Shown here: piece after piece, positions 6,817-22,491 of the stretch | Layout: every line of letters begins with the position of its first letter | Position numbering within the stretch: position 1 is the stretch's first letter | Assembly (NCBI GenBank): GCA_041664625.1 | Contig: JBAYKK010000001.1 | Location: 1,956 to 65,955 of the forward strand | Source: Minisyncoccota bacterium | GTDB taxonomy: Bacteria; Patescibacteriota; Minisyncoccia; Phycocordibacterales; WO2-35-19 | Reading direction: 5' to 3' | Length of the DNA: 64,000 nucleotides | Position numbers and translations under genes: made by a program | Notes under the pieces: generated by a model | Seen by the model: only the letters and a program-made list of their open reading frames with translations | The model's database searches: none | Told to the model about the DNA's origin: nothing

Positions 6817-8019
6817 ATGTTAAAAATTGAAAATAAAATAAAAAACTCTCTCGGTAGAGCTGGAGTTTTGACTACGGCTCATGGTTCAATCCAAACTCCG
6901 GCTTTTGTGGCAGTGGGCACCAAAGCTACTGTCAAATCTTTGTCTCCAGAACAAGTCAAAGCGGCTGGTTCGCAAGTAGTTTTGGCCAACACTTATCATC
7001 TTTATTTAGAACCCGGAGAAAAAATAGTGAAAGAAGCCGGGGGCTTACATAAATTCATGAATTGGCAAGGTCCGACCATGACTGATTCGGGTGGTTTCCA
7101 AGCTTTTTCTTTGGGGGTGGCTTATGGTAGTAATTTAAATAAGTTTATTGTGAGTGATGCTCCGACAGTTGCCGAGATCGATGAAGCGTATGATAAAAAC
7201 AAAATAAAAAAAGCCAAAATAACTGAAAATGGAGTAGAGTTTCAATCTATTATCGATGGTAGTGCACATTTTTTTACGCCCGAAAAATCTATCCAAATTC
7301 AAAATGATTTGGGGGCGGATATTATTTTTGCTTTTGATGAGTGCACCTCGCCTCACGCTTCCAAAGAATATTTAAAAGAAGCTATGGAGAGGACCCACCG
7401 ATGGGCAAAACGTTGTTTAGATTTTCATAATAAAAAAGAACAATTCTTGTTTGGCATCGTGCAAGGTGGGCGCTATGAAGATTTGAGAAAAGAAAGTGCC
7501 AAAACGATAAGCGGTATGGACTTCGGTGGTTTTGGAGTGGGTGGTTCGTTTATAAAAGAAGATATGGCTACAGCAGTAAAATGGGTCAATGAGATATTGC
7601 CAGAAGAAAAACCTCGGCATCTTTTGGGAGTAGGGGAACCAGTAGATTTAATTTTGGGAGTAGAAAATGGTTGCGACACTTTTGATTGTGTCTCACCGAC
7701 GAGACTAGGACGTAACGGCACATTTTTCACTCACCAAGGCAAAATACATATTGAAAATACAAAATATAGAAACATTTTTGAACCGATAGAAAAAGACCTG
7801 CCCGACGGCAAGGCGGGTTGTGGGTGCTACACTTGCCAAAATTATACTGCCGCTTATGTTTCGCATCTTTTTAGAAGCAAAGAAATGTTGGCTGGCACAT
7901 TGGCCTCGATTCATAATCTTTATTTTTTGAATAATCTTATGTCACGAATTCGTCAGTCAATTTTGGACGGCACATTTTTTGAACTAAAAGAAGAATTTTT
8001 GAGAAATTATAAATCATAA
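6817..8019 (+). CDS. tgt: Queuine tRNA-ribosyltransferase (tRNA-guanine transglycosylase).
   Basis: Motifs 'TDSGGFQ', 'LLGVGEP' and the Zn site 'CGCYTCQNYTAAYVSHL'. Confidence 0.9.
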   Translation: MLKIENKIKNSLGRAGVLTTAHGSIQTPAFVAVGTKATVKSLSPEQVKAAGSQVVLANTYHLYLEPGEKIVKEAGGLHKFMNWQGPTMTDSGGFQAFSLGVAYGSNLNKFIVSDAPTVAEIDEAYDKNKIKKAKITENGVEFQSIIDGSAHFFTPEKSIQIQNDLGADIIFAFDECTSPHASKEYLKEAMERTHRWAKRCLDFHNKKEQFLFGIVQGGRYEDLRKESAKTISGMDFGGFGVGGSFIKEDMATAVKWVNEILPEEKPRHLLGVGEPVDLILGVENGCDTFDCVSPTRLGRNGTFFTHQGKIHIENTKYRNIFEPIEKDLPDGKAGCGCYTCQNYTAAYVSHLFRSKEMLAGTLASIHNLYFLNNLMSRIRQSILDGTFFELKEEFLRNYKS

Positions 8020-12358: not shown

Positions 12359-13027
12359 TTAACTTCTGTTCCGGAGTGCATTTTTCATCGTCTCTGGATC
12401 AGTATACTCCAATTCGGTGCCCATAGAAAGACCTTTGCCCAAGTGCGAAATTTTGATTTTATTTTTTTCTAGGATTGGTTTTAAAAATTTGGCGACGTAA
12501 TCTCCTGTGTTTTCGCCTTCTGGGTTCCAATTGACGCCCAAAATAATCTCTTTAAGTCCAGAATAATGTTCCTCTCCTCGCCCCCCTCTTAAGGTAAGAG
12601 GGGGGTTGGGGGGTGATATTCTTTTTTCAATAAAACTTTTAAGTTCTTTGATGCGGATTCTTTTTTCCGGTTCTTTTTCTAATATCGGCACTGAACCACC
12701 AAGCACAAAATAAATGCCATTGAAACTGCCGTTTTTTTCTACTGATTCCAGATCGATATCTCTTTGTACCAACATCAAGACAGATTGGTCTCTAGTCTGA
12801 TCAGAGCAAATTTTGCAAAAGTGGCCATTATTGTTTTTGGATTCAAAAAATCTATGACAATCTTCACAAATCATCACATCATTTTTTAAATCTTTTATGT
12901 TTTGAGAAAGTTCTCTCAAAGTGCTATCGGTCCGGGTCAAAAGATAGTAGACAAACCGCCGAGCTTGCCGTGGGCCAATACCTGGGAATTGGGAAAATAT
13001 TTGAATGAGTTTTTCTATTGAGTTCAT
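12359..13027 (-). CDS. recR: Recombination protein RecR carrying a ~17 aa in-frame insertion encoded by a hairpin repeat.
   Basis: HhH 'GIGPRQARR', C4 Zn finger 'CEDCHRF...CKIC' and Toprim 'IILGVNWNPEGENTGDY'. The extra segment 'SPPNPPLTLRGGRGEEH' maps to 12570-12619. Confidence 0.9.
   Translation of the reverse strand: MNSIEKLIQIFSQFPGIGPRQARRFVYYLLTRTDSTLRELSQNIKDLKNDVMICEDCHRFFESKNNNGHFCKICSDQTRDQSVLMLVQRDIDLESVEKNGSFNGIYFVLGGSVPILEKEPEKRIRIKELKSFIEKRISPPNPPLTLRGGRGEEHYSGLKEIILGVNWNPEGENTGDYVAKFLKPILEKNKIKISHLGKGLSMGTELEYTDPETMKNALRNRS
12570..12619. repeat. GC-rich hairpin repeat (CCCCCCTCTT-aaggt-AAGAGGGGGG followed by GGGGGGTGA) lying inside the recR coding sequence.
   Basis: Perfect 10 bp stem in an otherwise AT-rich gene. 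Its end resembles the family's TIR. Confidence 0.55.
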
Positions 13028-13030
13028 ATA

Positions 13031-13067
13031 TACGAAATAACGAATGGATTACGAATGGCTACGAATA
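13031..13067. repeat. Left iteron arm with four ACGAAT repeats (tACGAAataACGAATggattACGAATggctACGAATa). It is the inverted partner of 13841-13900.
   Basis: ACGAATGGCTACGAATA at 13051-13067 equals the reverse complement of 13858-13874. Confidence 0.6.
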
Positions 13068-13456
13068 AGTTCACAAAATTTTTCCTTAGCTTCATGAGCA
13101 GAGCTTACAATATAGCCCGCTTTCTTCACAAATTCAATTGACCATTTTGGGTTCCTATTTTCCTGCCAAATAATAATAAGTTTATTGCAAAAATCACCTG
13201 GGTTTTTAACATTATTGGTGTAAAAATAGCCAATTTCAATCCAAGTGGCTTCTGAGGGGGCCATTCCTGGGTTTGCTATCATATAGTCACTGGATTTTAT
13301 CCCTTTTAAATCATCGGGAAAAAATGTATCTGGGGATGTTTGATCTGAATGTATTTCCCAGTCAAAGAAGTCACAATCGTTAATATTTTGGAAAATCTTT
13401 TTCCAGTTATTATCGTGCTCATTTGATTGTCCGGCTAAATATGCTTTTATTTTCAT
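13049..13456 (-). CDS. Nucleoside 2-deoxyribosyltransferase-like (SLOG-superfamily) protein.
   Basis: 'KAYLAGQ' N-terminus and 'SEATWIEIGYFY', which are typical of the NDT-like fold. Tentative. Confidence 0.4.
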   Translation of the reverse strand: MKIKAYLAGQSNEHDNNWKKIFQNINDCDFFDWEIHSDQTSPDTFFPDDLKGIKSSDYMIANPGMAPSEATWIEIGYFYTNNVKNPGDFCNKLIIIWQENRNPKWSIEFVKKAGYIVSSAHEAKEKFCELIRSHS

Positions 13457-13460
13457 GTAA

Positions 13461-13838
13461 TTAATCTGAATCTATTTTTAGAACTCTTATTGGTCTTAAA
13501 TGTAAAGTTCTAAAATTTACCAATAATCCTAATTTTTTGTTGGTTTGTTGGAGATAGTTTTGCAGTTGGCGATAATATTCTTTGTTAATTTCTCTGACCG
13601 ATTTTAACTCTAAAATTATTTTATCTTCAACTAAAAAATCCAAAACATTTCCGGTATTCCCAATCGCAAGCTCACGATTATATAAAATATTTTTCTCTTT
13701 AAAGTGTTTCTCAATTAAATCCGCATATTGTTTTTCTCTGGCATATTCTCCTAATTCTTTATGTACTTCAAAAAGTATACCCACAATAATATAAGAAAGT
13801 TCAGGATAAATAACTTTTGGACTCACTTTTTGTTCCAT
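13461..13838 (-). CDS. GxxExxY-family PD-(D/E)xK nuclease-like protein.
   Basis: '[11 protein letters not shown]' motif and a C-terminal '[13 protein letters not shown]' core. Confidence 0.55.
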
Positions 13839-13840
13839 AT

Positions 13841-13900
13841 TTCTATTCGTTATTTCTTATATTCGTAGCCATTCGTTGTAAATTCGTTACTTCGTATTTT
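13841..13900. repeat. Right iteron arm with five copies of ATTCGT (the reverse complement of ACGAAT).
   Basis: Read directly. It is inverted relative to 13031-13067. Confidence 0.6.
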
Positions 13901-15293
13901 AAAATTCGCGGAATTCGCCTTCGGCACCACTAAACTGAGCTTTTTCAAGTGGTAAAAACATAACCTTCTTTTCATCAAAGAAGAGGTCAACTTTGCCAGT
14001 GGCACCGTTTCTGTGTTTTTCAATAAGTATTTCGGCGATGTTGGTTTTTTCGGCGTCGTTGCTACCTTTGGCTTTGTCTTCGCGGTGTATAAACATAACC
14101 ACATCGGCGTCTTGTTCGATTGAACCTGAATCACGTAAGTCGGAGAGTTTGGGTCTACCACCACGCTGTTCAATGGCACGAGAAAGCTGAGAGAGAGCAA
14201 TGACTGGTACTTCAAGTTCGCGAGCCAAATTTTTGAGGGAACGAGAAATCTCGGTGACTTGGTTAACCATCGAATCATAATTTTTGGTGGTCACCATGAG
14301 TTGTAAGTAGTCCACGATGATAAGCCCCAAACCTTTTTCATTTTTGAGTCGTCTGGCGACTGAGCGCATTTTCAAAATGTTGTTGCCAGGCTGATCATCT
14401 ATGAAAATCGGAGCTTTGGAAAGCACATCTAAAGATTGGCGTATAGAGGCGAAGTCATCTTCGCGATTAAGTCTACCGGTACGCAATTTCCAAGCATCTA
14501 CGTTGGATTGGGAAGCGAGCATACGATCTACTAATTGTTGGGAGCTCATTTCTAAAGAAAATATACCGACTGGGACATTGTGATTGACCGCGGCTTGGCG
14601 AGCGATATCTAGAGCAAGCGCGGTTTTACCAACTGATGGTCTGGCTGCCAAAATAATGAGATCGGATTTTTGGAAACCAGAAAGTTTGTCATCTAATTCT
14701 TTGAAACCGCTGGGTACTCCACGTAGACCGTCTCCAGAATTGTGCATTTTATCAAGTCTTTCCCACGCTTCGGCCAACTCATCTTTCATTTCTACAAATT
14801 TGTGGATACTGGCGATGTTGGTCACATCATATATTTTTTTCTGAGCTTGATCCAAAAGTTCTTCCAATTCTTCGGCTTCGTCATAACCCAACGAGGAAAT
14901 GAAATCGGCTGCCGCAATCAGATTGCGAGCGATATGTTTTTTTTGGATTATTTGCGCGTAGTAGGTGGCATTGGCAGCTGAAGGTACCGAATTGATAACC
15001 TCTCCCAAATAAGTGTTACCACCGATTTCTTCCAAAATGTTTTTTTCTTTTAACCGAGCTGATACGGTGAGCAAATCAGTCGGACTCCTTTTGCTGAAAA
15101 GTTCGAGCATGGTCTCAAAAATCAAACGGTGCTTTTCAGAATAAAAAGAGGCACAGTGGGCTAAATCAGTAATTTCAAACATTACTTCTGGTCTGAGCAT
15201 CACCGAACCGAGGAGAGCCTTTTCGGCTTCGGTGTTGTTGGGTGGGATTCGCAGATGAGTTTTTTTGACTTCCATGCCCACATCATATATCAA
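13899..15293 (-). CDS. dnaB: Replicative DNA helicase DnaB.
   Basis: Walker A 'ARPSVGKTALAL' plus DnaB N-terminal and C-terminal domains. Confidence 0.9.
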   Translation of the reverse strand: MIYDVGMEVKKTHLRIPPNNTEAEKALLGSVMLRPEVMFEITDLAHCASFYSEKHRLIFETMLELFSKRSPTDLLTVSARLKEKNILEEIGGNTYLGEVINSVPSAANATYYAQIIQKKHIARNLIAAADFISSLGYDEAEELEELLDQAQKKIYDVTNIASIHKFVEMKDELAEAWERLDKMHNSGDGLRGVPSGFKELDDKLSGFQKSDLIILAARPSVGKTALALDIARQAAVNHNVPVGIFSLEMSSQQLVDRMLASQSNVDAWKLRTGRLNREDDFASIRQSLDVLSKAPIFIDDQPGNNILKMRSVARRLKNEKGLGLIIVDYLQLMVTTKNYDSMVNQVTEISRSLKNLARELEVPVIALSQLSRAIEQRGGRPKLSDLRDSGSIEQDADVVMFIHREDKAKGSNDAEKTNIAEILIEKHRNGATGKVDLFFDEKKVMFLPLEKAQFSGAEGEFREF

Positions 15294-16671: not shown

Positions 16672-17100
16672 GTGATGAATCTAAAAGAATTAAAATTAGC
16701 AGGTGGGCTTATTTATATGTGTGAAGGAACTAAACTTCGCCAAGATCTGCGTTATAAAAATACTTTTATATATGCGATAGAGTTTACTAATTCTAATCCT
16801 AAATTGGTTTTTTTGTTCGTTAAATTTATGAAAAAGATTTTGAATATTGAACCAAATAAAATTAAAGGCCAACTTTTTATTTATCCAGATTTAGATAAGA
16901 AAAAAGTTATGGATATATGGAGCAGTCGGACGGGTGTGCCCATTGAACAATTTCAAAAAATCATTATGCTTAAGGCGAAGGTTTCAAAATTTAAACATAA
17001 CCCATTAGGTACGTTTAAAGTGAGGTATTCGAGTAAAGAAAAATTTTTGAAGCTTCAGGAAATAATGGATAGTATTTGGAGAGATGCGAGAGTGGTTTAA
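16672..17100 (+). CDS. Hypothetical protein. 'LAGGLIYMCEG' weakly resembles a LAGLIDADG motif. Its 3' end overlaps tRNA-Ser by ~23 nt.
   Basis: ORF only. The motif resemblance is weak. Confidence 0.3.
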   Translation: MMNLKELKLAGGLIYMCEGTKLRQDLRYKNTFIYAIEFTNSNPKLVFLFVKFMKKILNIEPNKIKGQLFIYPDLDKKKVMDIWSSRTGVPIEQFQKIIMLKAKVSKFKHNPLGTFKVRYSSKEKFLKLQEIMDSIWRDARVV

Positions 17101-17162
17101 TCGGCAGACCTGGAAAGTCTGTGTGGGGCAACTCACCAAGGGTTCGAATCCCTTTCTCTCCG
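17078..17162 (+). tRNA. tRNA-Ser (anticodon GGA) with a long variable arm. CCA is not encoded.
   Basis: Hand fold: acceptor GGAGAGA/TCTCTCC, anticodon stem CAGAC/GTCTG with loop CTGGAAA, and T-arm AAGGG-TTCGAAT-CCCTT. It closely resembles E. coli tRNA-Ser. Confidence 0.8.
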
Positions 17163-17275
17163 CATTGACAATTTAGTATCGGTGTGTCCCGATTACTTGA
17201 GAGTAATCTGCGACCGGAATACTATAAAAAGTTGAACAAAAAATACGAGAGCTATTCGTATTTTTTGTTTTCCTA

Positions 17276-18604
17276 CTAAGCTATCAGAGTTATCTTTTTA
17301 TCCTTATACTCCAACCTGCTTCTGAGATTAGCCAGCAGTTCTCTTTTCTCGCTCGTGCTCCCTTCCTTGAGGAGATACTTGGCGTAATTCCTAATGTCGG
17401 TATCGTAGTTAGTTTGCGTTTTTTCTTTGGCTCCAAGCACAGATCGCTGGAAAATATTGTATCTTTTAATCTCTTCTTCCAACTTATGTTGCATCCCAAG
17501 CTCATTGAGATTCACTTGGTCTATGATTTTAAGAAGCCCGTCAATCAGTTCTTCCTCCCTAATATATTTATTCTTGCAATTCCGGTCTCTAGCTCGGCTA
17601 CACCCGTAGTATATGTAGTGAGCCGAAGTACCATCTTTAAGCGGCTTCCATTTTTCTTCAGCTGATATGCCAGACTGGCAGTACCCACAGGTGAAAAGCT
17701 TGGTAAAGGCAAACTCTTTGTTTTCTCTCACTATCTGATCCCGCTTAAGTTGAGCTTGGGTTTTTTCAAAAAGTTCCTGAGTAATTAACGGCTGGTGCTT
17801 GCCTTGGTACCAGTTTCCAGACTTGGTTGGATACTCAAATGGGCCGTAGTAGAAGGTATTTTGCAGTACTCGGTATACTCCACTTAACGTCAGGGGTTTA
17901 TTCCCCCGGGTATGGAAATTCAGTTCAAATTTCATCCAGTTGTAAATCCTTCTGCCAGAATATTGCTCGTACGCCACCTTCTCAAACATCTTTTTTATTA
18001 TCGGAGCTCTCGCAGGATCAACTAACAACACGCACTTCCTATCCATCATTTTTTGGGTTAAATATCCAAGTGGTGCTTGAGTTGGCCAGAGACCCATCTC
18101 TACTCTAGTTCGCAAACCTCTTTTTACATTGATGCCTCGGTTATCGTTTTCTAGTTTTGCCTGACTGCCTAAAATCATCAGGAGGAATTTTTCATTAGGG
18201 TTATTTGAAAACTTCTGACTATATGTGCGTATTTCCACCAAAAGTTTGGCATCCATGAGGTCTACGATTTTTCCCAAGTCCCCGGCATTCCTTGAAATTC
18301 TGTCCGATGCCCAGGTTAATATTCCATTATATTTTTCTTTCCTAATATCATCGATTATTTCATTAAAGACCACTCTTGTACCGGTCTCTTTTGCAGAGTG
18401 ACTTTCTCTCTTAATTTCTACCACCTCCAACCCTTCCTTTTCAGCCAGTTGAAGCATCTCCTTCACCTGACTATCAATGCTCAAAACTTGCCTCTCCTCG
18501 GACTCGGTACTCTTCCTAGCATAGAGGCAGTATTTGACCGGAACCACCACTTCTTCTTTTTTCTTGAAATCTATAATCGAACTTCTTATTTGTGTTTCTT
18601 GCAT
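17276..18604 (-). CDS. Large serine recombinase (integrase).
   Basis: Catalytic 'YARKSTESEE..SIDSQ' N-terminus, a recombinase domain and a C-terminal Cys cluster 'CGYC...C'. Confidence 0.85.
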   Translation of the reverse strand: MQETQIRSSIIDFKKKEEVVVPVKYCLYARKSTESEERQVLSIDSQVKEMLQLAEKEGLEVVEIKRESHSAKETGTRVVFNEIIDDIRKEKYNGILTWASDRISRNAGDLGKIVDLMDAKLLVEIRTYSQKFSNNPNEKFLLMILGSQAKLENDNRGINVKRGLRTRVEMGLWPTQAPLGYLTQKMMDRKCVLLVDPARAPIIKKMFEKVAYEQYSGRRIYNWMKFELNFHTRGNKPLTLSGVYRVLQNTFYYGPFEYPTKSGNWYQGKHQPLITQELFEKTQAQLKRDQIVRENKEFAFTKLFTCGYCQSGISAEEKWKPLKDGTSAHYIYYGCSRARDRNCKNKYIREEELIDGLLKIIDQVNLNELGMQHKLEEEIKRYNIFQRSVLGAKEKTQTNYDTDIRNYAKYLLKEGSTSEKRELLANLRSRLEYKDKKITLIA

Positions 18605-22224: not shown

Positions 22225-22491
22225 ATGAATCTCTCACTAAAATCATATGGCTGGAAGTGTGTCATTGGAGCCGAAGTGGCATACATTCTTTGTGTATTGG
22301 GCGGATTCCTCCCCTTACGGTCAGCGGCTGGGATACAGCTTCATCACACCATTTTTGAAACTCTACCTGGCTTTACTTGGATTAGTTTTGGCAGCTTCAT
22401 ACTTGGTGCAATCTATATGTTCGTCTTCGCTTGGATTTTCGCTTCCTATTTCGTGTGGATGCACAATTCAAGTTTAATAAGTACTAAATAA
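22225..22491 (+). CDS. Small membrane protein.
   Basis: Two or three TM helices. Preceded by the conserved TTAATTAATAATTAAC motif. Confidence 0.4.
   Translation: MNLSLKSYGWKCVIGAEVAYILCVLGGFLPLRSAAGIQLHHTIFETLPGFTWISFGSFILGAIYMFVFAWIFASYFVWMHNSSLISTK

Follow-up and report, generated by a model that had tools for sequence, protein, structure and literature searches.

The window analysed here, a stretch of 64,000 nucleotides from a contig of a Minisyncoccota bacterium (Patescibacteria), carries two small genes between dnaB and recR. One encodes a PD-(D/E)xK nuclease of the GxxExxY family and the other a protein of the nucleoside 2-deoxyribosyltransferase (NDT) superfamily, and the pair is enclosed by two inverted arms built from short repeated motifs (iterons) with the core hexamer ACGAAT. 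The sequence-only reading of this DNA had described a discrete two-gene cassette inserted between dnaB and recR. Comparison with related loci confirms the insertion and identifies the nuclease gene as its constant part. Each arm is one half of an intergenic iteron palindrome that is found across Patescibacteria and is split here by an insertion of ~800 bp. Nuclease gene and palindrome may form a single unit, and this possibility is weighed below against several alternatives.

A repeat finder delimited the arms as an inverted repeat (I1) with halves of 38 nt that are 87% complementary and have 792 nt between them (Table 1), in agreement with the inverted iteron arrays first read from the sequence. 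Each arm consists of four (T)ACGAA(T) iterons spaced at 8 to 11 nt, with spacers of 4-6 nt. The number of ACGAAT copies claimed previously requires some revision. Three of the four on the recR side are exact (13040, 13051 and 13061) and the fourth, at 13032, is the variant ACGAAA, while the five on the dnaB side comprise four exact copies (13845, 13861, 13871 and 13882) and a variant ACGAAG, the copy at 13845 belonging to a truncated second arm. This truncated copy lies directly upstream of the ATG of the GxxExxY gene and forms a further inverted repeat (I2; 21 nt, 90% complementary) with positions 13028-13048. At the same site, two related loci (L017 and L073) carry a full tandem second arm, giving eight iterons in total. 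The arms bracket precisely two genes, as had been stated, and both are open reading frames (ORFs) on the minus strand, the products of which are 100% identical to proteins of an NCBI metagenome-assembled genome. The fit to the neighbouring genes is close: 1 nt separates the dnaB stop codon from the outer end of the dnaB-proximal arm and 2 nt separate the recR ATG from that of the recR-proximal arm, which overlaps the last six codons and the stop codon of the NDT-like ORF.

The 17-mer ACGAATGGCTACGAATA, which had been noted as exactly reverse-complementary between the arms, was found at 13051-13067 on the plus strand and at 13860-13876 on the minus strand, and these are its only two copies in the 64 kb at up to three mismatches (0.18 expected). 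The pattern ACGAA-N5-ACGAA is also confined to the two arms (0.09 expected). The hexamer ACGAAT itself is not enriched in the window (32 occurrences against 35 expected, seven of the 32 in the arms), and clusters of three or more iterons comprise these two arrays and one degenerate, chance-like run at 22426. A generic promoter motif of this genome was ruled out on these grounds, ACGAAT being unenriched and no further arm being present in the window. A single perfect palindrome of two overlapping opposed iterons, ACGAATTCGT at 7944-7953, lies far from the cassette and is probably a chance occurrence.

Signals for a sigma-70 promoter or an intrinsic terminator in the arms did not rise above shuffle background. 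A fixed leaderless promoter does not fit either, since arms lie anywhere from -2 to 12 nt from the ATG. The missing Shine-Dalgarno sequence at the cassette is uninformative as a clue, because a motif of this kind was seen at about 6 of the 64 predicted genes in the window. Boxes resembling TATAAT precede the ATG of several genes by 7-13 nt. Together, these features suggest that translation in this genome widely dispenses with a Shine-Dalgarno sequence or is leaderless.

Table 1. Features at the dnaB|recR junction of the window, content of this junction in the window and related loci (referred to by L numbers), and junctions at which a GxxExxY gene is bounded by arms.
Feature	Position or locus	Strand	Remarks
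dnaB	13899..15293	minus	upstream flank of insertion site; Pfam DnaB and DnaB_C
GxxExxY / PDDEXK_3 small PD-(D/E)xK nuclease gene	13461..13838	minus	125 aa; constant component of insertion
NDT-superfamily gene (nucleoside 2-deoxyribosyltransferase / nucleotide N-glycosidase-like)	13049..13456	minus	135 aa; variable partner or cargo
recR	12359..13027	minus	downstream flank of insertion site; Pfam RecR_HhH, Toprim_4 and RecR_C
dnaB-proximal arm	13860..13897		minus-strand reading ATACGAAGTAACGAAT-TTACA-ACGAAT-GGCT-ACGAAT; four iterons; I1 and 17-mer
recR-proximal arm	13030..13067		plus-strand reading ATACGAAATAACGAAT-GGATT-ACGAAT-GGCT-ACGAAT; I1
Truncated second arm copy	13842..13862		two iterons, one mutated to AAGAAA; I2
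Junction content: nuclease and NDT-like, separate	window, L001		
Junction content: nuclease fused to NDT-like, one ORF	L087, L088		
Junction content: nuclease and internally deleted (decayed) NDT	L057		
Junction content: nuclease and unrelated 80-aa ORF	L007, L008		
Junction content: nuclease alone	L010, L014		
Junction content: nuclease with CAA-to-TAA nonsense codon	L017, L073		
Junction content: bare arm doublet	L099, L100		
Arm-bounded GxxExxY locus: dnaB|recR	window and relatives		
Arm-bounded GxxExxY locus: wzm|wzt	L040, L122-127, L128-133, L143		four lineages
Arm-bounded GxxExxY locus: prgI|traC	L134-139		
Arm-bounded GxxExxY locus: upstream of recA	L140:6001-6540		
Arm-bounded GxxExxY locus: ruvA|fpg	L144:5403-7361		

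The insertion between dnaB and recR and its proteins

A metagenome scan with RecR yielded 80 related loci, in which dnaB was located by tblastn and was found directly upstream of recR in about 70. Several of the related loci stem from Hainich groundwater, where these genomes are abundant. At empty sites, the two genes share a TAATG stop/start overlap or are separated by spacers of 3-90 nt, many of them 3-15 nt. Since some 70 related loci keep dnaB and recR adjacent, often with the TAATG overlap, the segment between them in the window is an insertion, and the synteny comparison, with both occupied and empty sites among relatives, upholds the earlier proposal on this point. Occupied sites are scattered over the RecR tree. 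Some incongruence between nuclease and host trees was also seen, although these were short neighbour-joining trees and synonymous sites were saturated. In a single comparison, removing ATACGAAG...TTTCGTAT from the window restored the empty site of L046, TAAAATATG, with no duplication.

The content of the junction differs considerably among orthologous loci (Table 1). The nuclease gene is the constant part, and the NDT-like gene is fused to it, split from it, decayed, replaced or lost, so the notion of a discrete two-gene cassette does not hold. No NDT remnants were detected in the nuclease-only loci except L057. The decayed NDT gene of that locus and the nonsense codon shared by L017 and L073 are signs of a dispensable element. 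The latter affects the otherwise invariant Q37 of the dnaB|recR GxxExxY gene (L017:2639-3010, minus strand; L073:2705-3076), and the two tandem arms upstream of the nonsense-bearing gene are intact. As the codon is present in two independent assemblies, the gene is likely a real pseudogene. An invertible segment was rejected, given that the nuclease gene is oriented as dnaB and recR in every locus.

The assignment of the nuclease is well supported by matches to PF13366 (7e-22, 78.4 bits against a cut-off of 22) and TIGR04256 (1.2e-20, 74 bits against a cut-off of 35) and by its fold, as the sequence-only reading had anticipated. The predicted catalytic residues D67, E77 and K79 and the ExxY motif (E35, Y38) are invariant in 52 homologues. 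The AlphaFold2 (AF2) model, with a predicted local distance difference test (pLDDT) score of 92.9, has the restriction-endonuclease-like alpha/beta fold of PD-(D/E)xK enzymes. Its best structural matches in the PDB all belong to this class (lambda exonuclease, Cas4, Hjc and tRNA-splicing endonuclease) and are weak (E ~3e-3, template modelling (TM) score ~0.5), as is a match to the catalytic domain of I-Bth0305I; a profile search against PDB sequences gave no match. The ratio of non-synonymous to synonymous substitution rates (dN/dS) is 0.03-0.09, similar to that of DnaB. The gene has a GC content of 27% compared to ~40-45% in the flanks, and the inserted segment as a whole is below the flanks. 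GxxExxY (TIGR04256/PF13366) is a widespread family of uncharacterised function, and some other phyla have it as multi-copy families of paralogues. Full-text literature searches returned incidental mentions of it and no functional or experimental study. A search of IMG/VR brought up no match to the arm pattern and no close nuclease relative, and a phage origin was ruled out on this basis.

The second protein matches PF05014 below the gathering cut-off (E=0.0015, 19.1 bits against 28.8) and over residues 37-82 only; some of its homologues have a precomputed match to this family. A profile search of the PDB retrieved BcmB and BlsM at ~4e-4, and Foldseek with the AF2 model (pLDDT 89.3) retrieved BcmB (5e-5), MilB, NDTs, BlsM and DNPH1 with TM scores of 0.6-0.73. 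E74 in the motif WIEIGYF is invariant across homologues and may occupy the site of the nucleophilic glutamate in NDT and DNPH1. On the strength of the PDB profile matches, the model superposition and the invariant glutamate, the protein is placed in the NDT / nucleotide N-glycosidase fold group (NDT, CMP-glycosidases and DNPH1). The earlier description as nucleoside-2-deoxyribosyltransferase-like thus finds support in the fold search, with Pfam remaining below cut-off. The SLOG label that accompanied it is loose, as there were no SLOG families among the Pfam or PDB matches.

It was also suggested that the pair might constitute a small defence module. A gap of 4 nt separates the two genes in the window, and two or three lineages have them joined into a single ORF with a linker of ~15 aa (L087:473-1312, L088:1-501 and protein P0027). 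These fusions hint at a functional link between the nuclease and an N-glycosidase or transferase, though the NDT gene is lost elsewhere. Both genes are under purifying selection, and the fold search also retrieved TIR and STING-associated effector domains, to which the NDT fold is related. All of this would suit a defence, addiction or nucleotide-salvage module that uses the iteron arrays as operators. Such a module is nevertheless improbable, as most orthologous loci retain nuclease and arms but have no intact NDT-like gene, this being missing, replaced or decayed. A total of 344 NDT-like homologues were found, and in the two other contexts examined they stand alone, without arms and without the nuclease gene; one of these contexts is a nucleotide house-cleaning cluster with pyrophosphatase, Maf, NUDIX and Ham1 genes. 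Searches of PADLOC-DB returned nothing for the NDT-like protein and weak, generic PD-(D/E)xK matches for the nuclease (best 4.7e-5, partial). The lack of a close nuclease relative or arm pattern in IMG/VR further counts against a defence role, as does the presence of arms far from any such gene pair. The defence proposal is thus weakened by the absence of a significant PADLOC match and by the dispensable NDT gene, though the fused ORFs still speak for some functional tie between the proteins.

Other lineages carry unrelated insertions at dnaB|recR, including a GIY-YIG gene, an epimerase, a prephenate dehydratase and GC-rich hairpins. The GIY-YIG nuclease gene (L109:575-970, 108 aa, Pfam 1.5e-15) is located between a different inverted repeat, GTCATTCCCGCGTAGGCGGGAATC ... 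GATTCCCGCCTACTCGGGAATGAC, and so represents a second small nuclease family in the same arrangement. The hairpin, …CCTCACCCC…CCCCTCTCC-loop-GGAGAGGGG…, is followed by an A-rich run and recurs in the empty dnaB-recR spacers of L042, L043, L044, L048, L049, L052, L055, L070, L074, L079 and L089; it seems to represent a further class of intergenic repeats in these genomes. Within dnaB itself, ~1.2 kb is inserted between residues ~399 and ~400 (window numbering) in L096:309-2960 and L115:837-3485, which looks like an intein or other intervening element. Upstream of dnaB in the window, the region 16672-18604 contains a tRNA-Ser(GGA) (17078-17163) and a large serine recombinase gene on the minus strand (17276-18604; Resolvase, Recombinase and Zn_ribbon_recom), which is preceded by a low-GC (27%) 142-aa ORF without a Pfam match. 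This region is probably the edge of an integrated element. The recombinase gene is absent from the orthologous regions L010 and L014 and is therefore unrelated to the insertion between dnaB and recR.

Dispersed arms and their association with GxxExxY genes

A scan for the pattern ATACGAARTAACGAAT-N6-CGAAT, with one genome per species, returned 27 stretches in 15 assemblies. Nearly all are from Patescibacteria metagenome-assembled genomes (MAGs), at least 13 of which have the four-iteron arm, and several single genomes have 3-5 copies on different contigs. Two single matches in Actinomycetota and Niallia MAGs look like chance. The commonest form is a compact inverted doublet of ~85-95 nt, composed of a plus arm, a loop of ~4-30 nt and a minus arm and located in the very short gaps between genes. 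Doublets are mostly gene-less and their neighbours are unrelated housekeeping genes (tuf|rpsJ, S14, nusA, dnaK, topA, prfA, def, dus and ABC transporters). The outer end abuts a stop codon (0-3 nt) or an outward start codon (0-6 nt) in about 55 of 80 arms. The possibility that iterons occur as a generic element, raised in the sequence-only reading as an objection to its own cassette, is therefore realised in part, by a dispersed family in relatives, while within the window they are restricted to the cassette. A regulon operator was discounted, the genes beside the arms being functionally unrelated and forming no coherent regulon, although the iterons may still act as operators of some kind. 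Rfam held no credible match to arms or doublets, and no description of these repeats was found in the literature. Even without a link to the nuclease, the arm family constitutes an undescribed, strongly conserved intergenic element.

Within one genome, the iterons are kept and the spacers differ between copies, none of which are near-identical. Reading from the arm list, the two arms were of differing spacer type in 11 of 12 independent doublets, one RGGTT-like and the other AAAYT/TTAAA-like; the latter tends to follow a stop codon and the former to precede an ATG. In the doublets L019, L022, L023, L025, L028, L030, L031, L034, L037 and L039, one strand is G/T-rich in both spacers. As a result of the differing spacer types, it is this strand alone that can fold into an uninterrupted hairpin via G-U(T) pairs; the opposite strand cannot. 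The folding strand is frequently antisense, and not consistently sense, with respect to the neighbouring genes. Furthermore, complementarity between the partner arms of one doublet is lower than that between arms of different doublets. Selection for a perfect hairpin is thus not evident.

The association with the nuclease was assessed in the Patescibacteria clade of GxxExxY proteins with at least 63% identity to the window protein. All of the loci retrieved (8/8) are bounded by arms flush with the ORF, and this is so at five types of junction (Table 1). The usual topology is that of the window, with the plus arm(s) 5' of the nuclease gene and the minus arm 3', and inverted arms flank the gene in the window, L040, L128, L134, L140, L143 and L144. 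In L014 and L008, the gene lies between direct plus arms and there is a minus arm at recR, the direct repeat in L014 being a perfect 42-mer. In L122, near-identical direct minus arms of ~45 nt surround the gene. Duplicated direct arms such as those of L014 and L122 fit recombinational insertion at an arm. In arm-poor DNA, namely the 64-kb window and the 12.4-kb stretches L143 and L144, the sole arms are those at the nuclease gene.

Strong purifying selection acts on both the nuclease and the arms. Across orthologous dnaB|recR loci, nucleotide identity to the window is 77-85% for the nuclease gene, 72-79% for dnaB and 65-80% for recR. The recR-proximal arm is 86-95% identical (L001, L008, L057, L073, L087, L010 and L014) and exceeds all other features in conservation, whichever locus is compared. 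The dnaB-proximal arm is equally prominent in the closer relatives L008, L057, L073 and L087 (92-97%), and falls to 76-82% in L010 and L014. Synonymous divergence was considered as a test of recent horizontal transfer; it is uninformative, because the sites are saturated and AT-rich composition lowers the plateau.

Several observations at the other junctions deserve mention. A block of 2,506 bp containing PemK, Wzm, PemK and GxxExxY genes with arms (L125:421-2926) is 100% identical to L122 and L126 from one metagenome, although the flanks of these contigs are diverged or unalignable. Its right boundary coincides exactly with the outer end of an arm and the wzt ATG, a pattern suggestive of recent transfer or conversion of the block up to an arm. 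The two PemK/MazF-like toxin genes of L122-L127 (372-806 and 1966-2409) are situated between arms with no obvious antitoxin gene, each after a tandem double arm (7-8 iterons) inside a polysaccharide-export operon. Three of the five junction types involve recombination or repair genes (recR; recA; ruvA and fpg), which could be due to chance, a target preference or a role in repair.

The arms may alternatively be host intergenic 'punctuation' repeats akin to repetitive extragenic palindromes (REP), bacterial interspersed mosaic elements (BIME) or Correia elements, with no functional tie to GxxExxY, and the doublet loop may be a tolerated or recombinogenic landing spot that collects small accessory genes (GxxExxY, NDT-like, PemK and small ORFs). 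Repeats of this kind would have a part in transcription, influence how mRNA is processed or how stable it is, or be bound by a chromosomal protein. Their position between many housekeeping genes, with ends at stop and start codons, speaks for such a role, as do the conserved iterons with variable spacers and the bias of spacer types towards the stop or ATG side, which suggests polarity relative to genes. In addition, the window arms could pair in a dnaB-recR transcript (duplex energy -47 kcal/mol), other types of gene are also found between arms, and dnaB|recR accepts unrelated insertions in other lineages. Even so, we judge this account rather unlikely, albeit the strongest of the alternatives. 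It is hard to reconcile with eight of eight GxxExxY loci being arm-bounded, even in arm-poor DNA, unless there is a specific link. The poor match between the arms of a doublet, the frequently antisense orientation of the better hairpin strand and the silence of Rfam sit poorly with it as well.

Nuclease and palindrome as a possible unit

The reading that we prefer, with a confidence falling just short of an even chance, is that the nuclease gene and the iteron palindrome form one unit analogous to REPIN-RAYT or homing elements. It looks like a selfish or semi-domesticated "nuclease plus its repeat" element that has not been described previously. This is favoured because of the strict flush association and the joint conservation of nuclease and arms, and because arms are duplicated around the gene and gene-less doublets exist, one of them at dnaB|recR itself. 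From these patterns we infer how the element might act and move. The nuclease would recognise or cut the iteron arms, or a structure that they form, and the breaks would be mended by recombination with an arm-flanked copy carrying the nuclease gene as the template. The gene would thereby be placed between or next to arms at other arm-bearing junctions or, following DNA uptake, at the same junction in other genomes. Gene-less doublets would then be either targets or deletion derivatives.

A more conventional mobile element was also considered. The sequence-only reading had likened the arms to transposon ends, and they could in principle be multi-site terminal inverted repeats for a transposase encoded elsewhere, with the cassette as cargo and the doublets as miniature inverted-repeat transposable elements (MITEs). 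Inverted ends with several repeated sites do resemble those of Tn7, Mu and IS21, short dispersed doublets co-exist with a larger gene-carrying version, and the arm termini ATA...TAT are compatible with a TA target site. However, no transposase gene was found, either at the element or in the related loci, the copies within a genome are not near-identical, and the L046 empty site offers no target-site duplication, this being a single comparison. There are also single arms, and some nuclease genes are flanked by arms in direct orientation (plus-plus or minus-minus). A classical transposon or MITE is accordingly the least probable of the explanations considered, and we regard it as very doubtful.

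A number of points weigh against treating nuclease and palindrome as a unit. PemK toxin genes, the NDT-like gene and the 80-aa ORF are also found between arms, so the arms may be permissive or recombinogenic spots for any small gene. The differences in spacers within a genome, with the iterons kept, indicate long-term selection on the repeats rather than recent copying. The dnaB|recR GxxExxY sequences form one clade with saturated synonymous sites, and ancient vertical inheritance with losses may explain the patchy distribution as well as repeated homing would. Finally, the very low dN/dS and the recR, recA, ruvA and fpg neighbours would also fit a host DNA-repair nuclease.

A broader version of the preferred reading can be put forward as speculation and is itself rather unlikely. 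GxxExxY proteins would be the cognate enzymes of the Patescibacteria iteron palindromes, in a partnership of repeat and caretaker nuclease that is REPIN-RAYT-like but built on a different fold; the enzyme would cut arm DNA or the cruciform of a doublet, and so copy itself and its repeats among junctions and genomes. If true, this would give the large uncharacterised GxxExxY family its first function. The arm-flush GxxExxY genes, together with the dispersed doublets of the same arms, point to the likely DNA substrate of the family. A true link between nuclease and arms would also help to explain how accessory genes are shuffled into operon junctions of the ultra-compact Patescibacteria genomes.

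Comparison with known systems

The element described here is not a member of the REPIN-RAYT, homing, Correia-type MITE or REP-loop insertion sequence (IS) families, since it lacks an HUH transposase, or indeed any transposase, as well as a palindromic REP with a GTAG head. Each of these families nonetheless shares some features with it. Free-standing homing endonuclease genes include seg and mob of phage T4, and homing enzymes with the PD-(D/E)xK fold are also known, e.g., I-Ssp6803I. Like these, the present element has a small nuclease ORF exactly between two conserved genes, occupied and empty alleles at the same site among relatives, GC content below that of the flanks, and occasional decay, as in L017 and L073. 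Homing endonuclease genes are not normally bracketed by multi-iteron inverted repeats, however, and the synonymous saturation and monophyletic dnaB|recR clade seen here fit old vertical descent equally.

Correia elements or NEMIS of Neisseria and other bacterial MITEs are palindromic intergenic sequences of ~100 nt near gene starts or ends, which are co-transcribed with their neighbours and can form long hairpins. The doublets resemble them in size, in their palindromic structure and position near gene ends, in co-transcription, and in being able to form hairpins. They differ in that their arms are built from iterons, with no near-identical copies, no demonstrable target-site duplication, and a specific nuclease gene in the centre of some copies. 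Another parallel is provided by insertion sequences with a specific preference for the loops of REP/BIME, such as IS1397 and ISKpn1. As in ISPpu9 (PMC8450116), a gene-carrying element is found inside a palindromic extragenic repeat. Here, in contrast, the gene encodes a lone PD-(D/E)xK nuclease and there is no transposase and no inverted repeats of the element's own.

The TIGR-Tas systems of Patescibacteria and their phages consist of 36-nt units with two ~9-nt (8-12-nt) spacers, box C/D motifs and an adjacent gene for a Nop-domain Tas protein (PMC12045711). Short conserved motifs with short variable spacers in the same bacterial group are a point in common, but a TIGR-Tas array was ruled out by the 4-6-nt spacers, the four iterons per inverted arm and the absence of a Tas gene. 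An integron gene cassette was likewise rejected, as no tyrosine integrase was found and the two genes of the window share one arm pair with no arm between them.

The REPIN-RAYT systems of Proteobacteria (REP doublets forming hairpins, with REP-associated tyrosine transposases) offer the most extensive comparison. In these, REP sequences have a GTAG/GGAG head followed by a short internal palindrome (PMC3686654), whereas each arm here has four direct iterons, with no internal palindrome and no such head. The associated gene encodes a 125-aa PD-(D/E)xK (GxxExxY) nuclease, unlike RAYT, which is a Y1 HUH (IS200/IS605-like) transposase. It is present at several different junctions and is patchy among relatives, and copy number appears low, with none besides the cassette in 64 kb. 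In both cases, short extragenic repeats occur mainly as close inverted doublets between genes (PMC3686654; PMC3479197), one gene for a nuclease-type protein has inverted copies of the repeats on either side, different lineages of that gene seem to go with different repeat variants, and the gene is long-lived under purifying selection. Should the nuclease indeed act on the iteron palindrome, the element would show that the partnership of repeat and nuclease known from REPIN-RAYT has arisen a second time independently.

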